Shown one piece after another: positions 17,656-56,589 of a stretch of 64,000 nucleotides of DNA (its first letter is position 1; every line of letters begins with the position of its first letter). The translations under genes and the position numbers were made by a program. The notes beneath the pieces are model-generated. The model was not told the DNA's origin and did not search any database. It worked only from the letters and a program-made list of their open reading frames with translations. The stretch covers positions 1,060,145 to 1,124,144 of the forward strand of contig CP065002.1 in NCBI GenBank assembly GCA_016700095.1, in the 5' to 3' direction. Source of the stretch: Candidatus Woesebacteria bacterium (GTDB lineage Bacteria > Patescibacteriota > Microgenomatia > UBA8517).

Positions 17656-18993
17656 TTAAATTAACGGTACTGAGGTAACAGTTTCGTTGTGGATATAGAG
17701 TTGCCGATTTAATATATTCGTTACTTCTCGTTTTTCCAGCATCGTTCCATTTCTGAAAATGTAGTTCGCATAATCCATAAAGTGAACAGGCTTGTTTTCA
17801 GGGTTAATGTCTTGCGCCCACAAAATCTCATCTCGCATTTTCTTGTAAGATTCCATACTTTCTTTTATAAATAACTTAAAAGTAAATATCTGCGGATGCG
17901 CCATATACATGAAGTTTAGGTATCGTAATATTTGCTTTACTAGCTTTTCCTCTGTGAGATATGGTTCCGGGCAACCATACTTTTTCTGCCTCGTACAGTG
18001 ATAGTAAATGTGATAGCGTGGTTCTCCATATTTTCGCTTTCTGTATCTATCTTCACCAATAACCAGTGAACCGCAACTCGCACATTTGAACAGTTCTTTG
18101 AAGGTAAAGGTTTTGCTACCCCATTTTGCTTTCTTTGGAGCTACAAGCTGTTTTTGTACTTGATCAAATAGCTCTTTGCTAATTAGTGGTTTATGTGACC
18201 CTTTGTACCAATTACCACTTCCGATAGGATACTCAAATTCTCCATAATAGAACGGGTTTTTAAGCATCAAGTAAATTTGACTGAGTGTTACTTTCTTTCC
18301 TGCTCTGGTTGTTAAACAAGAATCGAGCCACTTCTTGAGAGTTCTTCCGCTATCACCATTTTTCGCAACCCTTTCAAACATTTCTGTCACAAATGGTGCT
18401 CTTTCAGGATCAGGAATAATATCTTTTATGCCAGCCATGGCTCTATTGAAATAACCGATTGGCGGCATTCCCGGTCTCCATCCCATGTTACATTTCGCTC
18501 TGATACCTCTTTTTACATTTATTCCTTTCTGGTCATTCTCAAGTTTGGCTTGAGAGCAAAGGATCATAAGTAAAAACTTATCACTTGGGCTGTTTGAGAA
18601 TGCTTGCGTGAATGTTTTAATGTGGATGAGTTTTCCGCCATCCATCATATCTACAAGCATTCCTAAATCTCCTGCATTCCTTGATAATCTATCTGGAGCC
18701 CATGTTAAAATCCCTGTGAACATTCCATTACGAAGATCATTGAGGAGCTGATTAAAGACTGGTCGCTGCCCCGAAAGTTTGGCTGAATGACTTTCTTTGC
18801 GAATCTCTTTGATAAATAGTCCTTCTTTTATCGCCATGTCATTCATTTCTTTGATTTGAGAGTCAATTGACATGGCTTGCCGTTCATCATCCTCAGTTGA
18901 TTTTCGGGCATAGAGACAATATTCAACGGTCTGTACTTGCGGTAGAACTGCTTGCTGTAACAAGTTATTCTGGTAGTTCATATCAGGGAACAA
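17656..18993 (-). CDS. Large serine recombinase (resolvase/invertase N-domain, recombinase domain and zinc ribbon)
   Basis: YCLYARKSTEDDERQAMSIDSQ carries the catalytic Ser motif. A recombinase domain follows, then a Cys cluster CASCGS...CTRQKKYGC. Confidence 0.9.
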   Translation of the reverse strand: MFPDMNYQNNLLQQAVLPQVQTVEYCLYARKSTEDDERQAMSIDSQIKEMNDMAIKEGLFIKEIRKESHSAKLSGQRPVFNQLLNDLRNGMFTGILTWAPDRLSRNAGDLGMLVDMMDGGKLIHIKTFTQAFSNSPSDKFLLMILCSQAKLENDQKGINVKRGIRAKCNMGWRPGMPPIGYFNRAMAGIKDIIPDPERAPFVTEMFERVAKNGDSGRTLKKWLDSCLTTRAGKKVTLSQIYLMLKNPFYYGEFEYPIGSGNWYKGSHKPLISKELFDQVQKQLVAPKKAKWGSKTFTFKELFKCASCGSLVIGEDRYRKRKYGEPRYHIYYHCTRQKKYGCPEPYLTEEKLVKQILRYLNFMYMAHPQIFTFKLFIKESMESYKKMRDEILWAQDINPENKPVHFMDYANYIFRNGTMLEKREVTNILNRQLYIHNETVTSVPLI

Positions 18994-21318: not shown

Positions 21319-21321
21319 CAG

Positions 21322-24339: not shown

Positions 24340-24344
24340 ATGTT

Positions 24345-25379: not shown

Positions 25380-25382
25380 AAT

Positions 25383-26183: not shown

Positions 26184-26200
26184 AATATAGCTAATAACTA

Positions 26201-26219
26201 CCTACTACATATTGTAGTA
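26201..26219. promoter_or_regulatory. Palindromic operator CTACTACA-TAT-TGTAGTAG upstream of the dsbA-like operon
   Basis: Perfect 8-bp arms. It contains the TACA..TGTA core of BlaI/MecI/CopY-family operators and lies 18-36 nt upstream of the start codon. Confidence 0.55.
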
Positions 26220-26262
26220 GTATTACTTTAGGAATGTCAAGGGTAAAAAATATTAGAGGCTA

Positions 26263-27276: not shown

Positions 27277-27628
27277 GAACTTCTAAAAAATACTTTCTCT
27301 TTTTTTCCGGCAGTTTATCAATACTATCCGCAAATGAAGCGATTGCAGTATCACCAAAAGAGCTAATGAAGTTCTTTAAGAACGATTGAGCTACATTTTT
27401 AGTATATTTTCCTTTTGAAATCTTAGGAGAGTAAATATGCCCAGCAGTATTTTCTTTTCGAGTTAGGAGACCTTTATCGAAGAGTCTTTGTAGAATTGTT
27501 GCAACTGTAGTGTATGCAAGCTTTTTATCTGTCTCAAGTTTATTAAGTACATCTCGTGCTGAACAATTTTTGCACTCCCATACAATATCCATTATCTGCT
27601 GCTCAAGCTCACCAAGAGAAGGTTTCAT
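27251..27628 (-). CDS. BlaI/MecI/CopY-family winged-helix transcriptional repressor
   Basis: LGELEQQIMDIVWE...ARDVLNKL...YTTVATILQRLFDKGLL is the family signature. There is no C-terminal CxCxxxxCxC motif. Confidence 0.85.
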   Translation of the reverse strand: MKPSLGELEQQIMDIVWECKNCSARDVLNKLETDKKLAYTTVATILQRLFDKGLLTRKENTAGHIYSPKISKGKYTKNVAQSFLKNFISSFGDTAIASFADSIDKLPEKKRKYFLEVLDEYDKNK

Positions 27629-27643
27629 ACTACATATTGTAGC
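27629..27643. promoter_or_regulatory. Operator-like palindrome ACTACATATTGTAGC abutting the blaI-like start codon
   Basis: Matches TACTAC-N5-GTAGTA with one mismatch. Confidence 0.45.
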
Positions 27644-27661
27644 AGGTTAGATTAATAATCA

Positions 27662-28582
27662 CTACTTCAGATGCTTGTTATAAAAGTCCAAGGTTCTCTC
27701 CGAGATTAAATCCCACCCTAAATTCCTAAAGTTATGATCTTGTCCTTCATATTCAAAGTACTCAAGTTGCTTTCCTTCTTTTTTTAATGCGTCTGAAAGT
27801 ATAATACTTGTCTCAGGATCAACTTCTGTGTCAGATAGGCCTTGATGAAGACTTATTGGAGTTTTATTCTTTGTAAGATTACTCATGAGAGAGTTATCCG
27901 AAGAATGACCACCACCAAGTGTTGGTGCCCAGAGAACTAAAGCTTTAATTGCATCAGTAGCTTCAACAGTTCGCAATGAAGTTTCTCCACCCATACTATG
28001 CCCCCACATACCTACTCGGTTTGCATCTCCTTTTTCAATATTCTTGACCGATGCGAGTAAATTGAGTACGTCTATGGCGTATTCCGGTTGATGCCCTCCA
28101 CCTTGTCCTTCAGACTTTCCATGTCCCCGATAGTCTGATGCCAAAGTTATGTAGCCATTGTTTGCCAGTATAGTTGCCATTCCATTTGTTCCATCTCCAG
28201 TCTGAAACGTTTGAGTGTCATAGTAACCGTGATTGAGAAGAATTACAGGAAAAGGTCCGATCCCTTCGGGTATATTCATAGCTGCATAAATCTTAAGGTT
28301 ATCAGATGTGTAAGAAATGATATATGGAGTAAAGTTAGATTCATTAGGAAGCACTTCTTCAATTTTTATTTCTCCACCATTAAACTCTCTCTTTCGTAAA
28401 CCCTCAATAAAGGATCGATCCTTGTCACTATCATTTTCTAGCAATTGATCACGCTCTGTATTTATATTTTGCGAAATGCCTATTTGCTGATTTGAGACAG
28501 GGAAGCTTTGTCTTTGCCATAGAATAAATGCTCCTATTCCAAAGATTAATATAACAGCTAAAATTATTAACTTTCTATTCAT
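27662..28582 (-). CDS. Secreted alpha/beta-fold hydrolase (S9/dienelactone-hydrolase-like)
   Basis: Signal anchor at the N-terminus. Nucleophile elbow GHSMGG. Confidence 0.75.
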   Translation of the reverse strand: MNRKLIILAVILIFGIGAFILWQRQSFPVSNQQIGISQNINTERDQLLENDSDKDRSFIEGLRKREFNGGEIKIEEVLPNESNFTPYIISYTSDNLKIYAAMNIPEGIGPFPVILLNHGYYDTQTFQTGDGTNGMATILANNGYITLASDYRGHGKSEGQGGGHQPEYAIDVLNLLASVKNIEKGDANRVGMWGHSMGGETSLRTVEATDAIKALVLWAPTLGGGHSSDNSLMSNLTKNKTPISLHQGLSDTEVDPETSIILSDALKKEGKQLEYFEYEGQDHNFRNLGWDLISERTLDFYNKHLK

Positions 28583-28592
28583 AACAACTTAT

Positions 28593-29321
28593 TTAATGGC
28601 TCGACCATCTAAGGCTTTTTGTTTCTTCATTGTTATTTTGGTTTTTAACTTCATTAGTGCTTATTGAAATAAGAAACATTTTATTATTTGTCTGGTTTCT
28701 CGCATAAAGTTTTGTTCCCTCAGCAGATAGAGCAAGTTGGTGAGGTTTACTTTCGGGAGGCAGTTGTATTAAATCAACTTTATAGGTACTTGTGTTAATT
28801 TTATATATCGCGTTACCAGTTTCTGCTGAAGTATAAGCGTATTTACCATCTGGTGAAATTATCAAGTCAGTCAACCCTAACTGCATGCCTATGTTTAATC
28901 TCTTTGCAACATTATGTGTCTGAGTATCAACAACAAATATTTGATCGGAAGTCATCAATAAATGAATATGTTCGAGACTTTCCTTACTTATTGCTTGAAA
29001 CTGTTCTTCAGGTGCAGTTGCTGTTAGCCAAATTTGTTTTTTATCAGGTATCAGAGTAATATTATGAGGAGTAAATTTAATAGTAAATTCTCCTTCTTTT
29101 GCAGATAAGTCGATTGCGGTTATTTCTTTCTTGTTCTGTCTTCCCAATACTATTACTTTTCCTTCCCTTACTTTATACTCTTTTTTCTCTATATTTTGAG
29201 AATTATTTGCTTGTTGATTGGAAGAAGAGAAATTGGTCTTTCGCCACAGAATCAATCCTCCAACAGCTATAATGACTAAAAGAGCCAAAATTCCTATATT
29301 TCTTAGGTTCATAAATAACAA
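28593..29321 (-). CDS. Membrane-anchored beta-propeller repeat protein (YVTN-like)
   Basis: N-terminal TM helix. Repeated KLYA, KYAY and QIWL blade motifs. Confidence 0.5.
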   Translation of the reverse strand: MLFMNLRNIGILALLVIIAVGGLILWRKTNFSSSNQQANNSQNIEKKEYKVREGKVIVLGRQNKKEITAIDLSAKEGEFTIKFTPHNITLIPDKKQIWLTATAPEEQFQAISKESLEHIHLLMTSDQIFVVDTQTHNVAKRLNIGMQLGLTDLIISPDGKYAYTSAETGNAIYKINTSTYKVDLIQLPPESKPHQLALSAEGTKLYARNQTNNKMFLISISTNEVKNQNNNEETKSLRWSSH

Positions 29322-30227
29322 TTACCGAACTTTGTTCCATGAGTTACCACCATCTAAACTTTTATAAATACTATTTTTCTCAGTTAATGTATATAACATT
29401 TCAGGACTTTGTTTATTAAAAGCTATAAATAATGGTGTTTCATCATTAAATGTTTCGCTCAATTTTTCCCAATTTTTACCACTATCATTACTCCGAGCTA
29501 GTCCATTCATTTCAGAAAAAGATAATAACTTTTGTGAATCCTGGGGATGAATAGTCACGACCGATACAAATCCATCCAATAATGTACTCCAATCAGCTCC
29601 TTTATTTACACTGATCATCAACCCCTGTGGAGTTGCTGCATAGACTATGCTCTCATCTTTAGGATCAGCAGCAAGATTAATAATTGGATAGGTGCTAGTT
29701 GATGCAACTTCCCATGTCTTACCTTGATCTATGCTTCGCTGCAACATACCGTTATACCAACCATAAACAAGATTAGAATTTGCTGGGCTTATTGTCATTG
29801 CATGGAAATCAGCCGGACCTTGTATACCATCTGATACTTTATTCCAAGTGAACCCCCCGTCTACGGATTTTTGAAAGCCAATATTACCTCCTGTGCTAGG
29901 GTGTCCACTACTAAAAAGCACTTTAGGATCGCTCGGATGAGGGGTAAATCCCATATAGTCATCTTGAGTAGTTCCCACTCTATTTAACTCTTTATCATTG
30001 GTCAGAACGAGCAAACCATGATGAGTCGCAATATATACTCTACTTGGATCAGCAACATCAACCGCTAAACCATGTCCATGAGTTATTTCATCAACCTGAG
30101 TTATCTCTTTTGATACATTTTCAGTTTCTTTCTTTGGTGAATTATTGCCCTCCTGTCGAAATAGTACGAAAAATCCAACAATAGCTATCAAGACGAAACC
30201 TATTAAAATAATCTTATTCATTTTCAT
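29322..30227 (-). CDS. BNR/Asp-box repeat beta-propeller protein (Ycf48-like)
   Basis: Repeated SxDxGxTW-type motifs ([35 protein letters not shown]). Confidence 0.6.
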
Positions 30228-32563
30228 ATTTTATACCTTTTCAAGAGAAGTGAATTGGTTACAACTGAAACACTGCTAAAAGCCATTGCTGCACCAGCGA
30301 TTGCAGGATTAAGCATAATACCAATGAATGGGTATAGCGCTCCCGCTGCTACTGGGATTCCTACAACATTATAAAAGAAGGCCCAGAAAAGGTTCTGTTT
30401 GATTACTTTCATTGTTGTGCGAGCAAGCCTTATGGCTTTGGGTAGTTTGGAAATGTGACCGCCAAGTAGGGTAATACCAGCAGATTCGATAGCTACATCT
30501 GTTCCTGTTCCCATAGCAACTCCTACATCCGCAGTTGCCAAAGCTGGCGCATCATTTATACCATCTCCAACCATTGCTACTTTATACCCTTCGTCCTGTA
30601 GCTTCTTGACTTCATTAGCCTTATCCCCAGGGAGCACTTCAGCAATCACCCGATCGATTCCTACCTGTTTCGCAATGTACTCTGCAGTACGTCTGTTATC
30701 TCCTGTTAACATGGCAACTTTGATACCCAGCTTATGAAGGGCAGCTACCGCTTCCTGCGCATCATCTTTAATAGTATCGGCAATCGCAATATACGCAAGA
30801 ATTGTTTTTTTAGTTGCAAAAATTACTGGTGTTTTTCCTTGTGAAGTTAATTTTTTGATATGATTAGTGTCTACCGTTAATCCCAGGTCATCTGCTAGTT
30901 TAAGATTTCCGGCAAAGTAATGAGTTCCAGTAATCGTTCCTTCAAGACCTTTTCCTTCCAACGCTTTAAAATTAGAAACAGATAAGAAATTAATCCTCTC
31001 ATCTTTAGCTCTTCCTACTACTGCCTGGGCTAATGGATGTTCTGATTGTTTCTCTAATGACGCAAGCAGCTGTAATATCTTTTTCTGTGCTATATTCGAA
31101 GTCACCTTTATGTCAGTCACTGAGGGCGTTCCATTTGTTATTGTCCCTGTTTTATCCATGACAACAAAGTTAACACTCTGGAATTTTTCAAGACTTTCTG
31201 CATTTTTGATAAGAATTCCATTCTGTGCTGCTTTGCCAACTCCAACAATAACAGCAGTAGGTGTGGCAAGACCCATCGCACACGGACAGGCAATAACAAG
31301 AATACCGACAAAACTAATTAGGCCAAGTGAGAGACTTTGCGAAAAAGGCATAAATTGAGAACCTACAATAGTCCATAGAAAAAGCATGACTACTGCAAAG
31401 ACCAGAACAATCGGCACAAATATTCCTGATACTTGATCAGCTATTCTTTCTATCGGTGCTTTAGAACCCTGTGCTGACTCAACCATTTTGATAATTTGGG
31501 ATAGTACTGTCTGCCCACCAACCTGGGTTGCCCTCATCTGAAACGCACCATGTTTGTTAATTGTGGCTCCAATTACTGTGTCCCCAACAGTTTTATCTAC
31601 CGGTATGGGTTCACCAGTAATCATAGATTCATCAATTGAGGATTTACCAGAACTAATCTCTCCATCAACCGGAATTTTTTGACCTGGTTTGACAATTATG
31701 GTGTCTCCGACAACAACCTGCCCAATTGGAAGCTCTATTTCTTCTCCATCACGGACTACAACTGCAAATTTTGCCGCAAGTCCTAAGAGTTTTTCAATTG
31801 CCTCACCAGTCTTTAGTTTTGATTTTGCTTCAAGGTATTTACCTAATGTGATGAACCCGATAACAACAATGGTAACATCATAATATAGTCCTTCAGGAGC
31901 GTTTAAGAGTGACTTTATTTCAGGAAAAAGAAGCATGATACTACTATAGAAATACGCAACTAGTGTACCAATTCCGACCAATGTATCCATATTTGCAGCT
32001 CTATATTTAATAAAACGTACAACACCATTTATAAATGGTCTTCCTATCCAAAACATGACAGGAGTCGCCAGTATAAATGATGCTCTGTTGAACGCATCCA
32101 TCGAAAGAGGGAAGGTGGGAAGGAATGCCACACTATGTGCAAGAATTTCCCAAAGCATTAGAAGAAAAACCACTGCAGCAATCGGCATGACAAAAGCTGT
32201 TTTCTGTCTCATTTCTTCAAGTTCTTTAAGCTTCTGGTCTTTCGCCTGATTTTCTGAAGTAATTTGTGGATACTCGGAAGATTTGCCAACTTCAGTATCG
32301 TTGAGCGTATATCCAAGCTTACTAACTTGCTCATTCATTTGAGGCAAATCAACTTTTGTTGCGTCAAATGCTACTTCTGCCTTTTCTGTACCGAAATTAA
32401 CAGCGCACGTTGAAACACCATCGAGCTTTTCAAGTTTTCTTTTAATGATATTTGCACATGATGCGCAGTGCATTCCCTTAACCTGAAATGTTTTTGTTTC
32501 CATATTAGGGTGTTCCTCCCGACTGATTTGACCACAAACTAATACCATTTGGCATTTTGCCAA
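30224..32563 (-). CDS. copA: Cu(I)-translocating P1B-1 ATPase
   Basis: HMA domain [17 protein letters not shown]6 [27 protein letters not shown]. 779 aa. Confidence 0.95.
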
Positions 32564-33662
32564 CCTTTATTTTGGCAATCTCTTTATTAGTGGCAGTATC
32601 AATAACTGAAACATCATCACTTAAAAGATTGGTAATATATGCTCTTTTCCCATCAGGTGAAACAACGACACCATGCGGTGCAACACCCGCTTGAATATTA
32701 CTGGTAACACGCTTTTCTTGAATATCGATGACATATACATAATCGCTAGTTGGCTTGCCAAAGTAATAGCCCTGATCTGCAACATACAAATACCGACCAT
32801 CTGGTGTGGCATATGACTGTATTGCGCCTTCGGATTCAGATGGTAAACTTATATAGAAAACCTCTCCTGTGTCTGTATCATAAAATGCCATCTGCTTTGT
32901 GTCGTAAACAGAAGCGGCTATATAGTTGGTGTTAGGAATAACCGCTGTTTGTACCGCGCTTCCGGAAAGCAGGATAGTTGTTACTTCATTTGTTCTGGTA
33001 TCAACCACACCAATCCCTTTTCCGCCAATAAATGCAACATATGCTTTTGTATCATCAGTAGAAAGACGGAGTCCATGTGGTTGTGCGTCTTTTGTAAGTG
33101 GGATGGTTTTCTCAACTTTGTATGTTATTCCGCTTATTTTATATACTAGTCCTGGTTCCTGTGCGGTAGTAAAAGCAGTTTTCCCGTCCCTGGTTACAAC
33201 AATATGCGCAAGATGTTGGTCAGTTCCTATATCTATGCGTTTTACTATCGAGTCTTTTTGTGGATCAATCACAATTACTTGATCTGAAATTACTTCTTCT
33301 GTTTCATCATTTTCAGTGGAATCATTTTCTTCTTCATGTCCTCCAAGACCCATAAAGTTTGCCGTTACCCAAACACTTTTTCCATCTGGAGCTACTTGCA
33401 CATTATGCGCTGAATAACCGACTTCCATCTCTCCATTCTTATAAGTAAGATCGATCTTACCAAGAAGTGAGTTATCTTTTGTATCAATTATAGCGATTGC
33501 ACCCTCATCCTCTAGTGCTACATACAGTTTTTCTGTCGCTTGATTTTGCCTAACAGTTGACTTACTGGTGGGTACTATTCTATCTGAGAAAAAAGCCAAT
33601 CCCAACACGATTATTACGAAAACAAAGGAGGCGATTATATATATGTGTTTAGATAATTGCAT
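32505..33662 (-). CDS. YVTN-family beta-propeller repeat protein, membrane-anchored
   Basis: N-terminal TM helix. Repeated 40-residue blades ([45 protein letters not shown]). Confidence 0.6.
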
Positions 33663-33694
33663 AGCAAAAGTTATTATTTCCTACATTTCTTGAT

Positions 33695-34483
33695 TTAATT
33701 TACGACTACTACTCCTCCCGAACTTGGATTTAAGTGATCGTGGTACTCCCATGCACCTGTCTTTTTGAATATATATCGATAGACAGATCCTTTTGTGAAC
33801 GCTCTAAACTGATCAAATGTTGGAAGCTTTTCATGTCCCGGGTGATTGGCTGAGGCAACCCACATATTCATACTGCTTTCATTTTGAAACTCAACCATGC
33901 CTCCTTCATTAATTTCTATCTTATCTGGTGTAAATCCATTGTCTGTGTACTTTACAGTTACCATTCCTTCCATACTGTGTGCAGGCATATCTGATGTGTT
34001 TCCTTCAACCAGATTTCCTGGAAGGGGTTCACCAGATCTTACATACCTTGCAATCAATGAGCCTTTCTCATTAACTACCGGAATTTCAAGATCATTAAAA
34101 ACCTGATCGTTTTCCTGATCTTCATAAACCATTACAATTAATTCTTTATTCTTTATATCGACGTTGCCAAGCGGAATCTCTACATCAGTATGTGTTCCTG
34201 CTTTTAGGAAAGCACTTATCTCAACAATTTGACTCAGTGTGTCTCCTTGCATTTCACGAAGCGCAAGAAATCCATCTTTCTTAAGAGTTGCGCTTTTTAT
34301 AACTACTTTATTTGTTGGCGTTTGCGGAGCAACAACAAGATCTTGTGTGCTTCGATTGCGTTCTTGAACTTTTGTTTTTGAGTTCTCTTGAGCTTTTGTA
34401 CCGTTTTTATTAACCACAAAGTACAAAAGTCCTGATACGGTAATGGCAAAGAATAAAATAACAATAATTAAAATTCCTTTCAT
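33695..34483 (-). CDS. Membrane-anchored protein with a possible cupredoxin-like C-terminal domain (hypothetical)
   Basis: N-terminal TM helix. The C-terminal segment PDKIEINEGGMVEFQNESSMNMWVASANHPGH resembles a cupredoxin_1-type fold. Confidence 0.4.
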   Translation of the reverse strand: MKGILIIVILFFAITVSGLLYFVVNKNGTKAQENSKTKVQERNRSTQDLVVAPQTPTNKVVIKSATLKKDGFLALREMQGDTLSQIVEISAFLKAGTHTDVEIPLGNVDIKNKELIVMVYEDQENDQVFNDLEIPVVNEKGSLIARYVRSGEPLPGNLVEGNTSDMPAHSMEGMVTVKYTDNGFTPDKIEINEGGMVEFQNESSMNMWVASANHPGHEKLPTFDQFRAFTKGSVYRYIFKKTGAWEYHDHLNPSSGGVVVVN

Positions 34484-34752
34484 TGATATTTCTTAAAAAC
34501 TTGCATTATTTCCTTTAGAGCTTCATCCTTTTTACCTTTGTTGATTGCATCTGCTGCACATTTTTGTAAATGGTTTTCAAGCATGAGGTGATCTACTTCC
34601 TTTAAGGCTTTTTGAATTGCTTGTGATTGGTGAAGCACATCAATGCAATATACATCTTCATGAACCATTTTGATTACTTTCTCTAGTTGCCCCTTGGCGA
34701 TTTTGAGTCGGTGGATTATTCGCTCTTGTGTATCTTTAGGTCTGTATGCCAT
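34480..34752 (-). CDS. csoR: CsoR/RcnR-family metal-sensing repressor (Cu(I)-type C-H-C ligand pattern)
   Basis: 90 aa. RLKIAKGQLEKVIKMVHEDVYCIDVLHQSQAIQKALKEVDHLMLENHLQKC carries the Cys/His/Cys triad. Confidence 0.8.
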   Translation of the reverse strand: MAYRPKDTQERIIHRLKIAKGQLEKVIKMVHEDVYCIDVLHQSQAIQKALKEVDHLMLENHLQKCAADAINKGKKDEALKEIMQVFKKYQ

Positions 34753-34773: not shown

Positions 34774-34792
34774 TACTACATCATGTAGTAGT
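34774..34792. promoter_or_regulatory. Palindromic operator CTACTACAT-C-ATGTAGTAG 22 nt upstream of csoR
   Basis: Perfect 9-bp arms. Same TACTAC-N5-GTAGTA core as the other three sites. Confidence 0.55.
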
Positions 34793-35876: not shown

Positions 35877-37400
35877 TTAAAATTTTGTATCAAATGTTAA
35901 ACGGTCCTCGTTTAAATTCCCGAGAGGTGAATACCTATCATACATACTACTTCCCATATCAATAATAATAACACTAGGTTCTCCCTGGTCTTCTTCTAAA
36001 ACTTTTAGGATTAAAAGCGAAAAAGCATCAGCAAGATCGTCATGTTTTTCTATTCCAAAACCAGTTAGTTGCATAAGTAGTTCTTCGGCTCCTTTTCTTG
36101 GGAAGCGTACTTTGCCCAGTTTTATAAGATGAGTAACAAGCGCAAGTCTTGATCTTTTATCTTGTCCTGATACTTTCACTCCTTCTGCGGGAACGTTATT
36201 ATTTTCCAAATGATGGATAAGAGCCGCTTGATATCCAACCTCTTCAATAAAAAGTTTTGTATATTGCCCGCTTCCCAGCTCTCTTGATAAGTCTTTTGCA
36301 AGCTCATATGTCTCAGGAAAACTTAATCTTTTATTGACCGGGAAAGGCAGTATATACACAGCAAGTTTATCGTTATATCCAAATACTTTTGCCGAAACCA
36401 TAGCAGTATAATCAGCCGATTCCTTTTGGGAAATAGCAAGGTCAATTCCAGTTGCTGTATACAAAAACTCTCTGTTGTCTTCGGGTGGAAGCACATCGTA
36501 ATATTGGATCCATTCGGGGTGAACAAGGCGGTCAGCGTCTGAAATTATCTTAAGTAAAAATTCTCTATACCAAGCGGATTCGCTTCCTATCTTTGATTTT
36601 AGATCATTTATTGATTCTTCGGTTTGAAATTTCTCAGGCCAAGCCACCCGACCTTCAGAACTAATAAGTGGATAAGAATAAAACTTGCCTTTTATCACAA
36701 GGTTTTCAATATTCTGCCTCAGTCTCATTAGAAGACTATCCTCGTGTAAAAGATTTCCAATAATCATGTATTTCGTATCACGATCTCCGATTGGTAAAAC
36801 CTCTCCTGTTAACCATTGATGTGTTTTGTCTCTTCCTTCACGGGTCTTAACGCTATTTAGATCCTCCACATCATCGCAAATGACTAAGTCTGGTCTATAT
36901 TGTTTATGTCTTAATCCTCTTATGCTTTGTTCAGATGATGCAACAGTAATTCTTGCTCCAAAGTTTGATAGTTCAAAAGTAGCAAGTCCTTTCTCATCTC
37001 CAGTTTCTTGAAATGGTCCAATGTCATTTTTAAGCAGTTCATTTCCTTCAAGCTCGTTTCTAATATTTGTCATTAGCTGTTTTGCCTGACTTTGAGTTTG
37101 ACTTAGTATTAAAACAAACTTTTTCTGTTGTTCGCCAATTATTGACCAGATGACATATGAGAGGGTGATAAGGGTTGATTTTCCTGATCCTCTAAATGCT
37201 ACAAGAACTACAAATTTATTATCCACGTCTTCTGTTATTTGAAACATTTCGGTGTGGAAGGAAGCAAATGGATAGCCAATGTAGTGAGATAGATAAATGG
37301 AGAAGAACCATTTATGGCTGTTTTTAGCAAGCATTCGTCTTACCGATCTTTTCTTCTTTATTGCCTCAAGCTCTTTATCAGAAATCACTTGTGCTGTCAT
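35877..37400 (-). CDS. terL: Phage terminase large subunit
   Basis: N-terminal ATPase Walker A VLVAFRGSGKSTLITL and a Walker B-like VICDDVED. The C-terminal part has a nuclease-like acidic pattern. Overlaps the upstream small-subunit gene by 4 nt. Confidence 0.85.
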   Translation of the reverse strand: MTAQVISDKELEAIKKKRSVRRMLAKNSHKWFFSIYLSHYIGYPFASFHTEMFQITEDVDNKFVVLVAFRGSGKSTLITLSYVIWSIIGEQQKKFVLILSQTQSQAKQLMTNIRNELEGNELLKNDIGPFQETGDEKGLATFELSNFGARITVASSEQSIRGLRHKQYRPDLVICDDVEDLNSVKTREGRDKTHQWLTGEVLPIGDRDTKYMIIGNLLHEDSLLMRLRQNIENLVIKGKFYSYPLISSEGRVAWPEKFQTEESINDLKSKIGSESAWYREFLLKIISDADRLVHPEWIQYYDVLPPEDNREFLYTATGIDLAISQKESADYTAMVSAKVFGYNDKLAVYILPFPVNKRLSFPETYELAKDLSRELGSGQYTKLFIEEVGYQAALIHHLENNNVPAEGVKVSGQDKRSRLALVTHLIKLGKVRFPRKGAEELLMQLTGFGIEKHDDLADAFSLLILKVLEEDQGEPSVIIIDMGSSMYDRYSPLGNLNEDRLTFDTKF

Positions 37401-37828
37401 TTATTTTCCTCCTCGTGTGTATTCGGCAGTAATGCCGCAAGTTTTAATGCTCTCGTTACCAATGCTTCTTGTTCTGGAGTAAGAGCTTCATTATCTGCTT
37501 TAAGCCTAGCCGTTACTTCAACTTTAGTTGCGTAATGAGGATGGTGGTGTTTCAGCCAGAAAATGATAGCTGTGAGGTTTTTGTCTCGGATCGCAGCCAT
37601 GAGCTGGGACTCAGCCATATCATTCACAAGTAATGAACCTTCAGCTATGGAAATGTCTGCTTGTTCTGCGAAGACTTCATTTTCCTTTCGCCATCTATAA
37701 TATGTTGCTCGACCAATACCAACTTTCTCACACGCAACTTGGACAATAGGCGTTTTCTTAAGTTGTTCAAGAAGTAATTCCTGAGTCTTATCAATCCGCT
37801 TCTGAATCGTAGTTTGATTATTTTCCAT
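37397..37828 (-). CDS. terS: Phage terminase small subunit (HTH DNA-binding)
   Basis: 143 aa. VACEKVGIGRATYYRWRKEN HTH. Position and coupling with terL. Confidence 0.6.
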   Translation of the reverse strand: MENNQTTIQKRIDKTQELLLEQLKKTPIVQVACEKVGIGRATYYRWRKENEVFAEQADISIAEGSLLVNDMAESQLMAAIRDKNLTAIIFWLKHHHPHYATKVEVTARLKADNEALTPEQEALVTRALKLAALLPNTHEEENK

Positions 37829-38573
37829 CTTTTATCCTTTCTGCTTTAATTCCAGAAACTTTTTCAAAGCGATCAATAATTACTTGGCAGTACTCCGGAT
37901 CTATCTCAACCATGAGGCATTTCCGTTTCGTTTGTTCGCAAGAAATAAGTGTTGATCCTGATCCGCCGAACGGATCATAGACATAGTCATTAACTTTTGA
38001 ACTGTTAAGGATTAAGTTTCGCAATAACCCAACAGGTTTCATGGTTGGATGAAGAGGACTTTTATTTGGTTTTGGATAAATGAGAATACTTTTGTCTTTT
38101 GCCTTATAGAATTCATGGCTTCCAAACCATCCGTATGCGATCAGCTCATGTTGTGGTAAATAGTGAAGCCGTCCGACGACAACATTGTTTTTGATCCAAA
38201 CAAGTAGTTGTGTAAGTCGAAAACCCGCATCAACAATGCCATCTCGCAAGGAGAACACCATTTTGTCTGAGTTAAAAATGTAAAAAGAATTTTTCTTGGC
38301 AAGATATGGCTTTATTGCTTCTAGCCATTCCTTCGTAAAATGGCGATACGTTCCTTCTGTTTGGTTGTGATCGTTGGCTATCTTTTTATTACTCTTAATT
38401 TCCGTAAGTTCAGCTTTTCCTTCAACATAAGCCACGCCGTAGGGCGGATCCGTCAGAAGGAGAGAGATTCGATCATCTAAAATAAGCCTCTTTAACAACG
38501 CTGAGTCTTTTGCATCTCCACACGCCAAGCGATGATCACCGAGTTGTAGAACATCACCTATTTTTATTTGCAT
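37818..38573 (-). CDS. DNA methyltransferase, N6-adenine/N4-cytosine class (DPPY)
   Basis: Motif IV LLLTDPPYGVAY and motif I VYDPFGGSGSTLISC. Confidence 0.85.
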   Translation of the reverse strand: MQIKIGDVLQLGDHRLACGDAKDSALLKRLILDDRISLLLTDPPYGVAYVEGKAELTEIKSNKKIANDHNQTEGTYRHFTKEWLEAIKPYLAKKNSFYIFNSDKMVFSLRDGIVDAGFRLTQLLVWIKNNVVVGRLHYLPQHELIAYGWFGSHEFYKAKDKSILIYPKPNKSPLHPTMKPVGLLRNLILNSSKVNDYVYDPFGGSGSTLISCEQTKRKCLMVEIDPEYCQVIIDRFEKVSGIKAERIKDGK

Positions 38574-39856
38574 AGCTTTGCCTCCTGTCCAGTCAACTTC
38601 TCGAAGCGCTTGATAATAAGGTCACAAAAAATAGGCTCAATTTCGCAAAGATATGCTCTGCGTTTGAGTTGTTCACACGCAATGAGAGTAGATCCGGAGC
38701 CACCGAATACATCAAGCACGATGTCTCCAGCTTTCGTGCAACGACGTAATGCTTTTTCATGGAGTGTTGGTGGTTTTTCTGTCGGATGTTCGTATTCTTG
38801 TGCAGGAAGACGTTTTGCTAGCCATATATTAAAAAGGTCAAGGATATCATCTGTCAGTCGATTTCCTGTTCCTACCTCTTTATTGAGAACCTCATTCAGG
38901 TTTTTGACTGATTCGGAAAGATACGGATTACCTTGAATACCATAAACGCATGGTTCATACACTTTATTAAATGCAGTTTGTGGAGTGACGTTCTGGTTAT
39001 TCTTAATCCAAAGACAAACTCGTTTGTTTATAATCCCAAGTTCCTTGTATATTCCCTGGATTAGTCCAATGTAATTTTCATCACACCAATAAAACACGTG
39101 TGCATCAGGAAAAGCAGTTGATAGCCCATTTTCAAGCGTTTTCTTGAGAAACGCTTTATATTCTTCTTCAGATTTCTTGTCATTCGTTTTCCCGCCATAT
39201 TTTCCATTTGTTCCAATCCCGTTGCTGTAATCGAGCGAGATATTATATGGGGGATCGCAGTAGAGCATGGATATCTTGTCATCCTGTACTAGCTTTTTGA
39301 GTACTTCGGGATCTGTCGCGTCTCCACAAATAAGTCGGTGCGATCCAAGCTGGTATATATCTCCCCATTTGCTTTTTGGTTCTTTGATCTTTTCAATTTC
39401 TTTTTTAACATCAAAGTCGTCATTTTCGACTCCCAAGTTATCATCCCAAATGTGTGAAAGATCGCTATCATCAAATCCAACATCAAGTAACAGCTCGACA
39501 TTAAATGATTTCAGAAGTTCAAAATCCCATTCTCCAGTATTGCGGTTAAGACGTAGATTCAACTCCTTTTCCTTCTGAAGATTGGGGATATTAACATAAA
39601 CTACAGGTACTTTTTCTATACCTAGTCTTTTTCCTACTTCGAGTCTGAAATGTCCACCAATTACAATATTTTTTCGATTAGATGCACCATTCGCAATAAT
39701 GGGATCTATCAATCCGAAGCGCTTAATACTCTCCGTTAATTGCTTGGCAGCTTCCTCATCCCATTTTCTTGGATTGTATTCAGCGGGGCGAAGTTCTTGA
39801 GCTGAAACATAAACGATAGAATATGGGTTCTCTTGTTTAGTATGTGCGTTCAACAT
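38564..39856 (-). CDS. ParB-like nuclease N-domain fused to a DNA methyltransferase (DPPY class)
   Basis: N-terminal ParB/Srx-like region (ELRPAEYNPRKWDEEAAKQLTESIKRFGLIDPIIAN). Then MLYCDPPYNISLDY and VLDVFGGSGSTLIACE. Confidence 0.85.
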   Translation of the reverse strand: MLNAHTKQENPYSIVYVSAQELRPAEYNPRKWDEEAAKQLTESIKRFGLIDPIIANGASNRKNIVIGGHFRLEVGKRLGIEKVPVVYVNIPNLQKEKELNLRLNRNTGEWDFELLKSFNVELLLDVGFDDSDLSHIWDDNLGVENDDFDVKKEIEKIKEPKSKWGDIYQLGSHRLICGDATDPEVLKKLVQDDKISMLYCDPPYNISLDYSNGIGTNGKYGGKTNDKKSEEEYKAFLKKTLENGLSTAFPDAHVFYWCDENYIGLIQGIYKELGIINKRVCLWIKNNQNVTPQTAFNKVYEPCVYGIQGNPYLSESVKNLNEVLNKEVGTGNRLTDDILDLFNIWLAKRLPAQEYEHPTEKPPTLHEKALRRCTKAGDIVLDVFGGSGSTLIACEQLKRRAYLCEIEPIFCDLIIKRFEKLTGQEAKLCK

Positions 39857-39906: not shown

Positions 39907-40650
39907 CTAATTGATGTTGAGGCGTTTCTTGTAGCGGTTGATAGCTATATTTATTTCGTTGTAATCAAGTGAGTCACCAAATTCTTGCTGTATGATATCC
40001 CCAATATCCTTTTCCGACTTTCCTTCTTGTTCAAGCTCATAAATTCTTTGATCTCGGTCAAAGTTCTTAATAGGCTGGAACTTATCAGCCTTCCTATACA
40101 TTAAATCTTTCTGCATTCGCTTCACCCACGGCCAAATATGCCTGATGTCATTGAGGGTCGTATCGCCATCAATTTCAAGCGAAAGTCTTTTCATACCGTT
40201 TTCCCATGTCGTAACCATAGTTACTCCTGCGGTCAAGTTCAGATTATCGGGATCATTAAATAAAAGGTAGCGACGAATACCAGTGTGCCAACGTGGAGAA
40301 AGGCGATATTTTCTGACGACACCCCATACATCCTCACGAAATGCATGCATTGGAGCTTTAGCGTTACACTCTTTTCTTTTATCCTCAGCTTCTAGGAACT
40401 TTTTCTCTTTATTTAAGCTATCAATCTCTGCTCGACACTTCGGCCATTCTGTTTTGTAATACTCGTCAGTTGCAATATCAAGCTTATGATTCCATTCTAA
40501 ATTGTCATCCTCATTCTTTATTCCTTCGGAAGGAATATTCCATTTTTTCCTGAGGTCAGCAATTTCTTTCTGAAATGCAGGTCTGCTGACAAGCACTTTT
40601 ATTTCCTGTTTCAGTCGCTTCGTTTTTTCAGCAAAATAGTCTTTTTTCAT
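39907..40650 (-). CDS. Hypothetical protein (247 aa), divergent from the helicase gene
   Basis: ORF only. Charged and coiled-coil-like. Confidence 0.4.
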   Translation of the reverse strand: MKKDYFAEKTKRLKQEIKVLVSRPAFQKEIADLRKKWNIPSEGIKNEDDNLEWNHKLDIATDEYYKTEWPKCRAEIDSLNKEKKFLEAEDKRKECNAKAPMHAFREDVWGVVRKYRLSPRWHTGIRRYLLFNDPDNLNLTAGVTMVTTWENGMKRLSLEIDGDTTLNDIRHIWPWVKRMQKDLMYRKADKFQPIKNFDRDQRIYELEQEGKSEKDIGDIIQQEFGDSLDYNEINIAINRYKKRLNIN

Positions 40651-40723: not shown

Positions 40724-43700
40724 GTGAATAATGATCAATTTATAATCAACACAAAAGTATTAGGTAATCCTATTAGGCAGGTTAATAAATCTGCTACATT
40801 TTCCGGCGATAAACCTAGAGCGTTAACACTTAGTAATAGAAGAATTGCTACATTCCCCAGATCTTGCGAAAAAGTAATTAAATCCTGGGATAAGCAATTC
40901 TCTTTCGTCGAAGAAAAACGAGAAAATGATCAAATTCTTGAAGAAGGATTGCGTCCGCCCCAAATCGGTGCACTCCATGCCGCACTCGCTCATTGGAAAG
41001 TAACAAACGCATCAGCCACCATTGTTATGCCTACTGGTACAGGAAAAACGGAAACAATGCTTGCACTTATGGTTTGCGAGCGAATAGATAAAATCCTAGT
41101 AGTTGTACCAACAGATGCGCTAAGAGATCAGATCACGAATAAGTTCCTAGGTCTCGGATTATTAAGAAAAATTGGAGCTGTTGGAAGGAAAGCAGAAAAT
41201 CCTATCGTGGGGACCCTCGAGCATCGACTCAAAACAGTAGATGAGGTAAATAAATTTTTTGGGTCATGCAATGTGGTGATAACGACAATGGCAATAGTAG
41301 GTGGATGCTCAGAAGAAATTCAAAAGGCAATGGCTGGAACAGCTACGTACCTTTTTATAGATGAGGCACATCATATTTCAGCACCAACTTGGCAAAAATT
41401 CAGAAAATTCTTCAAAGAAAAAACCATATTACAATTTACCGCCACACCTTTTAGAGGAGATGGAAGACATATTGATGGAAAGGTAATTTTTAATTATCCA
41501 TTACGAAAAGCGCAAAGCGAAGGGTATTTCAAGCAAATCAGTTTTATTGGTGTAAGAGATTATAATAAACAACGTGCCGATGAGACTATTGCCAAAAGAG
41601 CAATCAAAAAGCTGGAAGAAGACCTTGCACAAAATCTAGACCATATTATCTTGGCGCGAGCAGATAGTATAACTCGTGCGCGAGATATATTTGCTATTTA
41701 CCAACAACACGGCGCAAATCATAATCCTCAACTTTTTCATAGTAAGAAAAAAGTGGCTGAAAAACGCCAATCTCTTAATGAAATAAATGAAAGAAAATCA
41801 AGAATTATTGTATGTGTTGACATGTTTGGAGAAGGTTTTGACTTACCTGAATTAAAAATTGCAGCACTCCATGATGTGCATAAAGGTCTTGCCATTACAT
41901 TGCAGTTTACAGGAAGATTTACAAGAACAAAACCAAATATTGGTTCCGCAACGATTGTTGCAAATATCGCCAACCCTGGTGTTGAAGAAGCGTTAAAAGA
42001 CTTATATGCAGAAGATGCTGATTGGGATAAATTACTACGGAACTTAAGTGAAGGAGCGACTACCAAACAGGAAAAGCTATCTCAGTTTTTTGAAGGATTT
42101 GTGGATTTGCCTCCAGAATTCTTACCTCAAAATATTTTGCCTAAAATGAGCACTGTTGTTTATAAAACAAATAATACGCGGTGGACTCCCGAAAACATAC
42201 CAAAAGTAGTAAAAGAATCTAGGCTTTTTATTGACCCTACTGTAAATCAAGGAGAAAAAGTCGTGTTCTTTGTTACCTGCGAGAAAGAACCAATTTCTTG
42301 GGGCAATTTTAAGGATATCCATAATACGATTTGGGATCTGTATTTGATTCATTGGGATGAAGCTCAAAAATTATTATTTATCAATAGCTCAAACAACAGG
42401 TCCTTCCATGGGGAATTAGCAAAAGCTATTTGTGGCGATGATGTTGAAATAGTTCGTGGAGAACAAGTGTTTCGTACTCTCTCTGGGATCAATAGATTAA
42501 GCCTTATGAATCTTGGCTTAACACATTCCTTAAATCGAGCAATGCGATTCACAATGTATGTTGGATCAGACATACTATCAGCAATCTCGGACGCTCAGCA
42601 ACAAAATAGGATTAAATCCAATCTTTTTGGAAGAGGTTTTGAGAATGGTAGTAAAACAAGCATCGGGTCATCTTACAAAGGGAGGATTTGGTCTTATAAA
42701 ATAGCAGATGATATCTCGGAATGGATTGAATGGTGCCGAAAAACAGGCACAAAATTACTTGATGATACTTTTTCTGCAACAGATATTCTTAAATATGTAT
42801 TGCGCCCAACTTTAATAACACAACGGCCAAACCTCGTACCGCTAACAATAGAGTGGCCAGAAGACTTACTCTTGAAAAGCGAGGAAACTGTTGAACTAAA
42901 TATCGCGGGAGAGACGATTCCATTGTATGAAGCAGGTATTGAGTTAACGGACTTTAATAAAACAGGCCCAATAAAGTTCCAGGTTTTTAGTGAAAACAAA
43001 AGTGTTGAATATAAAATTGCATTTAATAATAACAATGTTGAGTATTTACCGACTGGGCAAGACACTGCACAAATTATAATTGCGAGAAAACCACAATCCC
43101 TTCCTGATTGGTTAAAAGAGAATTCTCCTATTGTTCGTTTTGAAAACGATTCATACCTACAATACAACGTTCTTTTTGAAAATCCTGCTGATCCGCCTGC
43201 ACCTTTTGATAAGGATAAGATTCAAATATGGGACTGGAATGGTATTGATTTGAGTAAAGAATCGCAGACAGTAAATAAAGATACTGACTCAATACAATAT
43301 CGAGTCATACAAGAGGCACTAAAGGATACCCACGATTCACAATATGATGTCGTTTTTGACGATGACGATTCCTATGAAGCTGCGGATGTAATAGGAATTA
43401 AAATGACAGAGGAGAAATTAATAGTTGATTTATACCATTGTAAGTTCTCCCAATCTGCCACTCCCGGAGCAAGAGTCGAAGATCTATATGCAGTTTGCGG
43501 TCAAGCACAAAAAAGTGTTCATTGGAGAGATGATATACAAAAACTTATCGATCACTTAACTTTACGTGAGGTGAGTCGACAAAAGAAAGGATTGGTTTCA
43601 AGATTTGAAAAAGGTGATTTAGAAAAACTCGAAGAAATAAGAAATAAAGTACCTTATCTTATTCCTGAATTTACAATCACAGTTGTTCAGCCAGGTTTAT

Positions 43701-43804
43701 CTAAAAACCAAGCAAGTAATAGTCAACTAGAACTACTCGCCGTTACAGAAAATTATCTTAAAGAAACACACGCAATAAACTTAGAAGTGATAGCCAGTCA
43801 ATAA
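40724..43804 (+). CDS. 1026-aa DEAH-box SF2 helicase with a large C-terminal extension containing a PD-(D/E)xK-like motif (Type III Res-like architecture)
   Basis: Q-like LRPPQIGALHA; motif I MPTGTGKT; motif II FIDEAHHI; motif III FTATPFR; motif V VCVDMFGEGFDLP; motif VI QFTGRFTR. The C-terminal region includes DVVFDDDDSYEAADVIGIKMTEEKLIVDLYHCKFS. Confidence 0.8.
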   Translation: MNNDQFIINTKVLGNPIRQVNKSATFSGDKPRALTLSNRRIATFPRSCEKVIKSWDKQFSFVEEKRENDQILEEGLRPPQIGALHAALAHWKVTNASATIVMPTGTGKTETMLALMVCERIDKILVVVPTDALRDQITNKFLGLGLLRKIGAVGRKAENPIVGTLEHRLKTVDEVNKFFGSCNVVITTMAIVGGCSEEIQKAMAGTATYLFIDEAHHISAPTWQKFRKFFKEKTILQFTATPFRGDGRHIDGKVIFNYPLRKAQSEGYFKQISFIGVRDYNKQRADETIAKRAIKKLEEDLAQNLDHIILARADSITRARDIFAIYQQHGANHNPQLFHSKKKVAEKRQSLNEINERKSRIIVCVDMFGEGFDLPELKIAALHDVHKGLAITLQFTGRFTRTKPNIGSATIVANIANPGVEEALKDLYAEDADWDKLLRNLSEGATTKQEKLSQFFEGFVDLPPEFLPQNILPKMSTVVYKTNNTRWTPENIPKVVKESRLFIDPTVNQGEKVVFFVTCEKEPISWGNFKDIHNTIWDLYLIHWDEAQKLLFINSSNNRSFHGELAKAICGDDVEIVRGEQVFRTLSGINRLSLMNLGLTHSLNRAMRFTMYVGSDILSAISDAQQQNRIKSNLFGRGFENGSKTSIGSSYKGRIWSYKIADDISEWIEWCRKTGTKLLDDTFSATDILKYVLRPTLITQRPNLVPLTIEWPEDLLLKSEETVELNIAGETIPLYEAGIELTDFNKTGPIKFQVFSENKSVEYKIAFNNNNVEYLPTGQDTAQIIIARKPQSLPDWLKENSPIVRFENDSYLQYNVLFENPADPPAPFDKDKIQIWDWNGIDLSKESQTVNKDTDSIQYRVIQEALKDTHDSQYDVVFDDDDSYEAADVIGIKMTEEKLIVDLYHCKFSQSATPGARVEDLYAVCGQAQKSVHWRDDIQKLIDHLTLREVSRQKKGLVSRFEKGDLEKLEEIRNKVPYLIPEFTITVVQPGLSKNQASNSQLELLAVTENYLKETHAINLEVIASQ

Positions 43805-43807
43805 ACT

Positions 43808-44401
43808 TCAGCTGATAAGTCTCAAAACAAACGGGACAATTCTTGTTGTCGGCAGTTTATATCGATACGCAATTTTGTAATACCACTTGAAACATATCTT
43901 CTTCATTTCTTCACATTGCTGATCAAAGACAAAGTCATCCTCTACGTCATTAAGAAGACTTCCTGCTGCTCGTTCTATTGCAATACTGAGTAGCGCATAT
44001 TCATTTTCATAATCAGGGTCGAAAAAGTCTCGTGATCTGTGCCTTTTTGATTCGGCAAGAGCAATCAGTTCGTCCTCGATGGCAAGATATAACCTAATTC
44101 CATCACTGCTTCTTACCTGCTTACTCAGTAGCGGCTTTTTATTCAATAGTATTGCTCTCCATAGAACTTCGTAGTCAAAATGTAGCGAATAAGAAAGCCT
44201 AGAAATTTCTGGAATAATTCTCTTATTGATATATCTCTTTCGTAATTCTCGTGGCGTTAGGTTATCATTAATTTTATATTTCGTTTTTACATGGCAAGTA
44301 ATAGCATAACAGGCATATGAATGAGTAAATAACATAAGCCTTGCCCTATTAAATGTTGTATATTTTCTTGCCCTTGCCATAATTAAAGGGCAGAAACACA
44401 A
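43808..44401 (-). CDS. Hypothetical protein (197 aa), convergent with the helicase gene and 4 bp from its stop
   Basis: ORF only. Confidence 0.4.
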   Translation of the reverse strand: MCFCPLIMARARKYTTFNRARLMLFTHSYACYAITCHVKTKYKINDNLTPRELRKRYINKRIIPEISRLSYSLHFDYEVLWRAILLNKKPLLSKQVRSSDGIRLYLAIEDELIALAESKRHRSRDFFDPDYENEYALLSIAIERAAGSLLNDVEDDFVFDQQCEEMKKICFKWYYKIAYRYKLPTTRIVPFVLRLIS

Positions 44402-44708: not shown

Positions 44709-44984
44709 TTATAATTTTAAGTTCGAACCTAAAGCACTTAAAATTGTCCTTTTTGTATCTGTATCTCCTTTTGCAAACCAATAACGAGCGTGGGTGGTAA
44801 AATTATAGATTTTTTCAAGATCCGCCTGATATGAGTTTCTCTCTGCTCGCCACCGTTTTGTATGCCTACCAGAATTTCCATTAGGAGCAATACCATTCTT
44901 AGATAAGAACTTGCGTACAGATTCTATTTCACCGTAAATATACTTATTTTTAAGGCTAATCCAGTCAATTTTTAATTGTTTCAC
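44709..44984 (-). CDS. Hypothetical small basic protein (91 aa)
   Basis: ORF only. Confidence 0.35.
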   Translation of the reverse strand: MKQLKIDWISLKNKYIYGEIESVRKFLSKNGIAPNGNSGRHTKRWRAERNSYQADLEKIYNFTTHARYWFAKGDTDTKRTILSALGSNLKL

Positions 44985-55833: not shown

Positions 55834-56589
55834 ATGAATCGACCTCGTTCCCTACTTGAACGTAAGTTCAAGACGCGCGCCATCCGGCGACAATTCGGTA
55901 ACGAGGTCTTTGTAACTTTATTATACACAACTGGTATCATAAGAATAATGGCATACGTTTTTATCGACGAAAGTGGAGATTTGGGATTTAATTTCCAGAA
56001 AAAGGGAACTTCAAGCTATTTTGTGATAACTCTTTTATTTAGCTCTACCAAACGTTCTGTTGAAAAAGTAGTCAAAAAAACATTCAGAAGTTTACCCGCT
56101 AAGGTACAGCAAAAACATACAGGCTGTCTACATGCTGTGAACGAAAAACCAAAAACTCGCATTAAACTGCTGAGTCTTCTCAACAAACAAGACATCTCAA
56201 TAGTCACGATATATCTTAATAAGAAAAAGGTCTATACCAGATTACAAGATGAGAAACACGTTCTCTATAATTACGTAACAAATATTTTACTAGATAGAGT
56301 CTATTCAAAGAAGCTGATTCCAACCAAAGGCCAAATACAATTAATCGCTTCTCAGAGAGAAACAAATAAGTTTCTTAATGCAAATTTTAAACAGTACTTA
56401 GAAAATCAGGCTAAAAATAATCACAAGCTAAATATTACTATTGAAATAAGACCATCCCACTCAGAAAAGGGTTTGCAAGCTGTCGATTTTGCATGTTGGG
56501 CAATTTACCGAAAAATTGAAAGGGGTGATTCTAGCTACATCAATATAATTAATAGCAGAATAATAGAAGAAAGCCCGTTGTTTCCTTAA
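55834..56589 (+). CDS. DUF3800-family protein; the likely true start is the internal Met at about 55948
   Basis: MAYVFIDESGDLGF is the DUF3800 N-terminal signature. Confidence 0.65.
   Translation: MNRPRSLLERKFKTRAIRRQFGNEVFVTLLYTTGIIRIMAYVFIDESGDLGFNFQKKGTSSYFVITLLFSSTKRSVEKVVKKTFRSLPAKVQQKHTGCLHAVNEKPKTRIKLLSLLNKQDISIVTIYLNKKKVYTRLQDEKHVLYNYVTNILLDRVYSKKLIPTKGQIQLIASQRETNKFLNANFKQYLENQAKNNHKLNITIEIRPSHSEKGLQAVDFACWAIYRKIERGDSSYINIINSRIIEESPLFP

Follow-up and report, generated by a model that had tools for sequence, protein, structure and literature searches.

The stretch analysed here, 64,000 nucleotides of a Candidatus Woesebacteria genome (contig CP065002.1, positions 1,060,145 to 1,124,144; 'the window'), encodes at 40724..43804 on the forward strand a 1026-residue protein, QQS38804.1, which by exact-protein match is publicly annotated as a 'DEAD/DEAH box helicase family protein'. 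On balance, we consider this helicase-nuclease to be a standalone, ATP-dependent translocase-nuclease that acts as a defence effector and belongs to an unnamed family. The observed basis comprises an intact gene, invariant residues, a single architecture, sporadic distribution, occupancy of a defence slot and repeated adjacency to defence genes. An initial annotation, made from the sequence alone, had proposed a single-protein defence module, and the intact, solitary gene in a defence-cargo slot bears this out in part; the nuclease fold and defensive activity, like the nuclease activity, DNA substrate, defence phenotype and self/foreign discrimination of our own reading, are what we infer. The helicase-nuclease is a promising and testable candidate rather than a surprise.

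In the mechanism we propose, the N-terminal superfamily 2 (SF2) motor, of the double-stranded DNA (dsDNA) translocase type exemplified by HsdR, XPB and RadD, would bind DNA and track along it, the beta-rich central region of about 400 residues would sense the target or keep the enzyme inactive, and the C-terminal domain would cut DNA at a variant PD-(D/E)xK site, D-x16-H-x-K, aided by D880/D881 and E885. Its role would be that of cargo directed against phages or plasmids and carried by a small integrative element in Candidatus Woesebacteria. Because no methyltransferase (MTase) partner is conserved, self and foreign DNA are probably not told apart by cognate methylation; more probably, although this is speculation, modified phage DNA would be recognised (in a type IV-like manner, as is reported for neighbouring Azaca on T4 DNA), or the trigger would be a replication intermediate or a phage protein such as SSB, in the manner of Hna or Nhi.

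Architecture and candidate active site

40724..43804 (+): helicase-nuclease gene, GTG start, 1026 aa
40949..41971 (+): SF2 motor core, RecA1 and RecA2, aa 76-416
41036-41050 (+): motif I, GTGKT, aa 105-109
41360-41371 (+): motif II, DEAH, aa 213-216
41438-41446 (+): motif III, TAT, aa 239-241
41903-41926 (+): motif VI, QFTGRFTR, aa 394-401
42086..43273 (+): central region, aa 455-850, mostly beta-strand, fold unmatched, many invariant Trp and Gly residues
43274..43801 (+): putative PD-(D/E)xK-like nuclease domain, aa 851-1026
43361-43366, 43385-43387 and 43436-43444: candidate catalytic residues D880/D881, D888 and H905-C-K907, respectively; E885 is a further candidate
aa 926-929: invariant GQxQ helix, after H905-C-K907 in the putative nuclease domain

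The open reading frame (ORF) and the SF2 motifs, which the initial annotation had placed within the first ~450 residues, were confirmed at the positions it gave. All helicase motif residues were invariant in an alignment of 47 homologous sequences (49–90% identity), as were D880, D881, E885, D888, H905 and K907 towards the C-terminus; in 26 more distant C-terminal halves (34–66% identity), D881, E885, D888, H905 and K907 were still invariant and D880 was invariant or nearly so. Much of the nuclease signature originally read in this region is present (DDDD at 879-882, DVIGIK at 888-893, HCK at 905-907) and coincides with invariant positions, but D882 and K893 are variable among homologs, and the 'EEK' included in that signature lies, unconserved, in a variable loop. 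The cluster of invariant acidic, His and Lys residues suggests metal-dependent DNA cleavage.

Pfam searches with the full protein and with its C-terminal part, as the initial annotation had suggested, recovered motor domains only (ResIII, 2.8e-25, and Helicase_C, 2.8e-9, within residues 76-402; DEAD also matched) and nothing past approximately residue 450. Matches in PADLOC, NCBIfam and PHROGs were likewise limited to the motor (PbeA, mREase_IV, Cas3, RadD and phrog_16), all of them far under the family cut-offs. The C-terminal ~570 residues matched no Pfam, NCBIfam or PDB entry, and the central region (aa 455-850), searched in the window protein and 26 homologs, had no match in Pfam, PADLOC or PDB. 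The view that the protein could not be placed in a named defence family held: no name for the family was found in PADLOC v2.0.0, NCBIfam 20.0 or Pfam, nor in the literature searched, papers on DefensePredictor and on domain-centric discovery included, and literature searches for the PADLOC candidate PDC-S71 and for the Escherichia coli homolog WP_001549206 gave none either.

An AlphaFold (AF2) model built from the 47-sequence alignment reached a mean pLDDT (predicted local distance difference test score) of 82.6; a model from the single sequence (pLDDT 31) was unusable. The former comprises a short region at the N-terminus, two RecA lobes (RecA1 being contiguous, aa 76-245), a helical linker, a mostly beta region of ~400 residues, confidently folded except for one low-confidence loop (aa 597-631), and a C-terminal domain. 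In fold searches the motor was closest to dsDNA translocases of the HsdR/XPB/RadD type, its best sequence matches being the repair helicases RadD and XPB, and membership of this class points to translocation on dsDNA, as with HsdR, XPB, SNF2 and Mfd. The modelled C-terminal domain consists of a helix (857-866), three strands (876-879, 889-894 and 898-906), a second helix (918-935) and a further strand (980-993), and D888 lies where the second strand starts, H905-C-K907 where the third ends. Predicted secondary structure and residues D888...H905-C-K907 follow the PD-(D/E)xK order with His for Asp/Glu, and as modelled this arrangement fits a restriction-endonuclease-like core in which His replaces the usual acidic residue. 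A phospholipase D (PLD)-type HxK reading of H905-C-K907 was rejected because the acidic residues upstream of it, which are invariant, suit a metal-dependent site, and because there is neither an Asp four residues past the Lys nor a GSxN motif.

Several results speak against a nuclease at this end of the protein. Pfam, at E values up to 1, matched no family in more than one of the 26 C-terminal halves; PDB searches with profiles of the nuclease domain and of the C-terminal half gave chance matches only (MotB, E 0.24; MoaD, E 1.5); hhalign comparison of the nuclease-domain alignment with the PDDEXK_1 domains of AddA and AddB returned a probability below 2%; structure searches with the full-length model gave match lists filled by helicases, so that no nuclease fold was confirmed; and His is atypical in a (D/E)xK triad. 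As neither profiles nor structures matched any nuclease family, and as the H-x-K variant is unusual, the protein could be a translocase or remodeller that uses its conserved acidic, His and Lys residues for binding of a ligand or partner, any effector function lying elsewhere. We regard this as unlikely: D880/D881, E885, D888 and HxK907 occupy a predicted beta-hairpin and keep the canonical order, the putative core weakly matches the nuclease-like candidate PDC-S71 (15/22 family members, best E 1.3e-7), and the homolog loci examined show no family-wide partner gene from which an effector could come.

Distribution, neighbours and a shared cargo slot

A search with the full-length protein returned 5,772 matches, among them homologs of ~1,090–1,100 aa and ~50% identity in Daviesbacteria, Methylobacterium, Gemmata and Chitinophagaceae, and at least 569 relatives were found in a scan of species-representative genomes. 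Relatives occurred in Patescibacteria, Acidobacteriota, Planctomycetota, Proteobacteria, Bacteroidota, Actinomycetota, Firmicutes, Deinococcota and Thermotogae, and in one archaeon. With the C-terminal half as query, 1,545 representatives (50% clustering) were recovered, 436 of them at E ≤1e-30, and nearly all were the C-terminal parts of proteins of 1,000–1,110 aa; shorter matches aligned from their own first residues into the interior of the query, which suggests that they are truncated ORFs. The family therefore has a single architecture: in this representative search the C-terminal module occurred almost exclusively within it and the central region was always linked to a motor. Identity of ~50% between unrelated phyla indicates that the gene has been horizontally transferred. 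It was present in 86 plasmid records (57 at full length), essentially absent from phage genomes and, in a search with DNA-level sensitivity, found in only 8 of the 5,426 complete E. coli genomes. The gene is accordingly accessory, horizontally moving cargo and not a core gene, the sporadic distribution being the one that the initial annotation had set against that of a ubiquitous core gene. Members in E. coli (WP_001549206.1) and on Klebsiella plasmids (WP_074091248.1) make direct testing in standard hosts possible.

Neighbours were counted at 94 homolog loci, and the fractions given below refer to 80 loci in species-representative genomes (L-numbers are locus labels). Homologs at ≥45% identity were solitary, with transposases, helix-turn-helix (HTH)/M78 genes, DUF4365, T5orf172 or a type III-like restriction-modification (R-M) pair nearby, the last beside the homolog in L005. 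The Klebsiella plasmid homolog was solitary and flanked by insertion sequences (ISs), and that of E. coli ECONIH5 adjoined retron Ec78 (reverse transcriptase, PtuA and PtuB) amid IS elements and integrases. A complete Azaca system (ZacA 8e-89, ZacB 3e-114, ZacC 7e-261) directly adjoined the homolog in 14/80 loci, in two different orientations. In a mainly alphaproteobacterial subclade at 42–44% identity, the homolog lay 3′ of an AddB-like/AddA-like gene pair (21/80 genome loci), separated from the AddA-like UvrD-nuclease gene by 15 bp in L054, and this subclade usually adjoined Azaca too; on a Sulfitobacter plasmid the homolog was the last gene of a five-gene helicase/nuclease operon. In Alphaproteobacteria, the AddAB-like proteins and the homolog, with or without Azaca, may form a larger multi-gene system (operons at L054:69-14942 and L107:406-11985; the p3SUD7 operon adds an ATP-binding protein and another DEAD/DEAH helicase). 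As a separate observation, an RVT_1 reverse transcriptase (L003:4567-5634, L004:8779-9846) or bAvd (L002:11849-12169) was found just 3′ of an 83%-identical homolog, which suggests a diversity-generating retroelement.

In the window the gene sits in a slot bounded by two genes of a conserved backbone, which lie on the opposite strand:

43808..44401 (-): 197-aa gene, right flank of the slot, strand shared with the 247-aa gene
39907..40650 (-): 247-aa gene, first gene of the backbone operon, left flank of the slot
38564-39856 (-): ParB_N-MTase (Pfam), backbone operon
37818-38573 (-): MTase (Pfam), backbone operon, optional in relatives
37397-37828 (-): terS-like HTH protein (Pfam), backbone operon
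35877-37400 (-): terL-like protein (PDB terminases 4bij, 2e-6, and 8dgc, 1e-4)

The backbone operon (35877..39856, -) was kept at 57–98% identity in L001 and L095–L106. In L095–L106 the 247-aa gene is followed by ParB-MTase, terS and terL, and its divergent neighbour varies, six different cargoes being counted at the same slot:

window, L001 and L014: helicase-nuclease
L095: OLD-family ATPase-TOPRIM protein (PADLOC AriA, 1e-27; Old and GajA too)
L096/L097: S24 peptidase, CD-NTase cyclase (4e-109) and two-transmembrane (2TM) effector (1.4e-38), that is, a cyclic-oligonucleotide-based anti-phage signalling system (CBASS)
L106: type IIS R-M system, RE_Alw26IDE and two MTases
L102–L105: five-gene cluster, weak HNH match
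L098–L100: 803-aa protein of unassigned function

By position, the 803-aa protein (L098:3478-5889, -; no Pfam or PADLOC match) and the five-gene HNH cluster (L102:3575-6926, -; 317, 190, 203, 305 and 89 aa, the third with the weak match, to HNH_5) are further defence candidates, and the conserved flanks offer a simple handle with which to harvest more candidate defence genes from Patescibacteria.

The two flanking ORFs had been described initially as lacking any recognisable motif and as possible partners of the helicase. Both exist and neither matched a family in Pfam, PADLOC or NCBIfam; partnership is contradicted by their distribution. It is true that the 247-aa gene stands divergent beside the helicase gene in the five closest loci and that a 197-aa gene follows it in L014, as a three-gene defence module would have it. 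However, homologs of the 197-aa protein (49–57% identity) bound the slot at its far end in L014, L096/L097 and L102–L105 irrespective of cargo, the 247-aa family (40 clusters, the named or located members of which are Patescibacteria) is found, among helicase-homolog loci, only beside the closest helicase relatives, and both genes are absent from all helicase-homolog loci at ≤65% identity. Because both keep their positions around unrelated cargo, they are backbone genes bracketing the slot and not partners of the helicase; an obligate three-gene module is refuted, and the three-gene reading as such is exceedingly improbable. It is possible that the 247-aa protein regulates expression of the slot.

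Two points count against the putative defence function of the family. Some cargo of the slot has no assigned function, and guilt by association is no proof; and the alphaproteobacterial homolog closes an operon with AddAB-like proteins, a possible hint of repair or recombination. The helicase-nuclease might, then, serve its element or host in repair, recombination or replication, for example in DNA-end processing with AddAB-like enzymes, and besides the 21/80 AddA-linked loci and the Sulfitobacter operon, the RadD and XPB matches of the motor would be in keeping with this. Against it stand the rarity of the gene in E. coli and its solitary state in most lineages, the interchange at the slot with CBASS, OLD and R-M cargo, none of which are replication or repair genes, and the fact that the AddAB-linked subclade itself usually lies beside Azaca. 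We judge a repair function improbable, and a defence effector remains the reading that we prefer.

Comparison with known systems

The helicase-nuclease resembles Hna, type III Res subunits and SauUSI in general logic, yet for each of these the defining features tested fail. Hna was reportedly described by Sather et al. in 2023. Like it, the window protein unites in one chain an SF2 ATPase at the N-terminus and a PD-(D/E)xK-type nuclease (here putative) at the C-terminus, is broadly but sporadically distributed, and has no partner gene; unlike it, the window protein has a ResIII and Helicase_C core of the HsdR/XPB/RadD type, an additional central region of ~400 aa and an HxK site. Hna, which acts in helicase-nuclease abortive infection, comprises 845 aa and is DinG/XPD-like, its Arch domain being reduced (Hooper et al. 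2026, PMC13381803). Membership of that family was rejected: no DinG/XPD-type domain was reported by Pfam, RecA1 is contiguous, and the proteins measure 1026–1100 aa as against 845 aa. No Hna chain appeared among the PDB sequence matches, the presence of Hna entries 9YKJ/10UJ in the copies searched, and of an Hna model in PADLOC v2.0.0, being unconfirmed.

A layout like that of type III Res subunits had been proposed initially, together with the lack of a Mod-like gene. The order of a ResIII-type SF2 motor followed by an endonuclease (putative in the window protein) is indeed that of EcoP15I Res (PDB 4zcf), but no similarity to the EcoP15I Res structure was found outside the motor. As for Mod, the nearby MTases are backbone genes that stay with other cargo, no operon-mate Mod is conserved, and the neighbours at the 94 loci include no conserved MTase; the protein was accordingly rejected as a type III Res subunit. 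That the helicase should be the Res-like subunit of an R-M system using its two neighbouring MTases, as the Pfam ResIII match and the presence of two N6/N4 MTases within 2.2 kb might suggest, is thus largely refuted already, and we give it very little credence.

SauUSI (an ATP-dependent type IV restriction enzyme, PDB 7clg) is likewise a single chain with a nuclease, a motor and an extra domain and with no MTase, and the motor matches it (5e-9; PADLOC mREase_IV 1e-10, aa 83-417 only). Its PLD nuclease is N-terminal, however, and its DUF3427 reader C-terminal, whereas the putative nuclease of the window protein is C-terminal and of another class; Pfam found neither a PLD nuclease domain nor DUF3427 in the window protein or its homologs. 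No Zac model matched the window protein or the L054 homolog, and Azaca (ZacABC) is a neighbour only. PDC-S71 is a phage defence candidate in PADLOC that stems from a guilt-by-embedding screen (Payne et al., bioRxiv 10.1101/2024.01.29.577857). Positions 415-478 of its profile align to the putative nuclease core; this amounts to ~64/589 profile positions, none of them in the helicase or central region, and PDC-S71 is itself a candidate.

The slot recalls the defence hotspots of P4/P2-type satellites and prophages (PMC13586616), in which a conserved backbone exchanges unrelated defence systems at one position, but here the backbone is that of an element of Patescibacteria, possibly a satellite, with terS, terL, ParB-MTase and recombinases and no capsid genes. 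If our reading is correct, a broadly distributed one-gene helicase-nuclease defence family at present goes under a bare helicase annotation. Rather more tentatively, the window protein could be the founding example of a widespread, unnamed, one-polypeptide immune system (~1,500 clusters at 50% identity, with members on Klebsiella plasmids and in defence islands of E. coli) with a new kind of sensor in its central region, coupled to the translocase and the variant nuclease, and its slot a defence-cargo hotspot of Patescibacteria in a terminase-bearing, capsid-less element.

The integrative element and minor features

The order of the backbone is 197-aa gene, slot, 247-aa gene, ParB-MTase, optional MTase, terS and terL, together with serine and/or tyrosine recombinases. 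Two further features belong to the island in the window:

17656..18993 (-): large serine recombinase (Pfam Resolvase, Recombinase and Zn_ribbon_recom)
19051-34752: copper/heavy-metal resistance block of ~16 kb, between the serine recombinase and the backbone

The recombinase is 67–73% identical to one found ~1 kb from terL in L098–L100, and a serine recombinase fragment adjoins the p182 homolog in L001. The copper block contains two P-type ATPases, a multicopper oxidase, a DsbD-cupredoxin, a thioredoxin and an M56 peptidase; L001, a 96%-identical relative, lacks it at that position. Neither in the island nor in the related Patescibacteria elements were portal or capsid/structural genes found. 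The initial description of a phage-derived island does not hold: with its terS/terL-like genes, two MTases, serine recombinase and copper block, this is an integrative element with a terminase pair and no capsid genes, not a prophage, and it may be a terminase-bearing, satellite-like element. No convincing direct repeats were found as attachment (att) sites, which is expected because the element uses a serine recombinase. A scan for promoters and terminators gave counts no higher than in shuffled controls.

A perfect 124-bp tandem repeat (16441-16825; 3.1 copies, 100% identity) reaches into a tRNA-Gln gene (16813-16884) at its 5′ end, ~800 bp from the serine recombinase gene, and may either reflect duplication of an integration site or be an artefact of assembly. 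Beyond the 197-aa gene, the C-terminal 32 residues of a 91-aa ORF (44709-44984, -) are 59% identical to the C-terminus of a 580-aa resolvase that holds the equivalent position in L095, and this ORF may be a recombinase remnant marking the end of the element. An 18-nt palindrome, TACTACATATTGTAGTAG, is present in four intergenic copies in the copper block (21300-21317, 26203-26220, 27628-27645 and 34774-34791), with an M56/BlaR-like peptidase gene and a 125-aa ORF close by; these copies look like putative operator sites for a CopY/BlaI-type repressor. Elsewhere in the window, a DUF3800-IX RNA motif was detected at 55837-55908 (-), its Rfam score of 56.9 bits exceeding the gathering score, 36.8.

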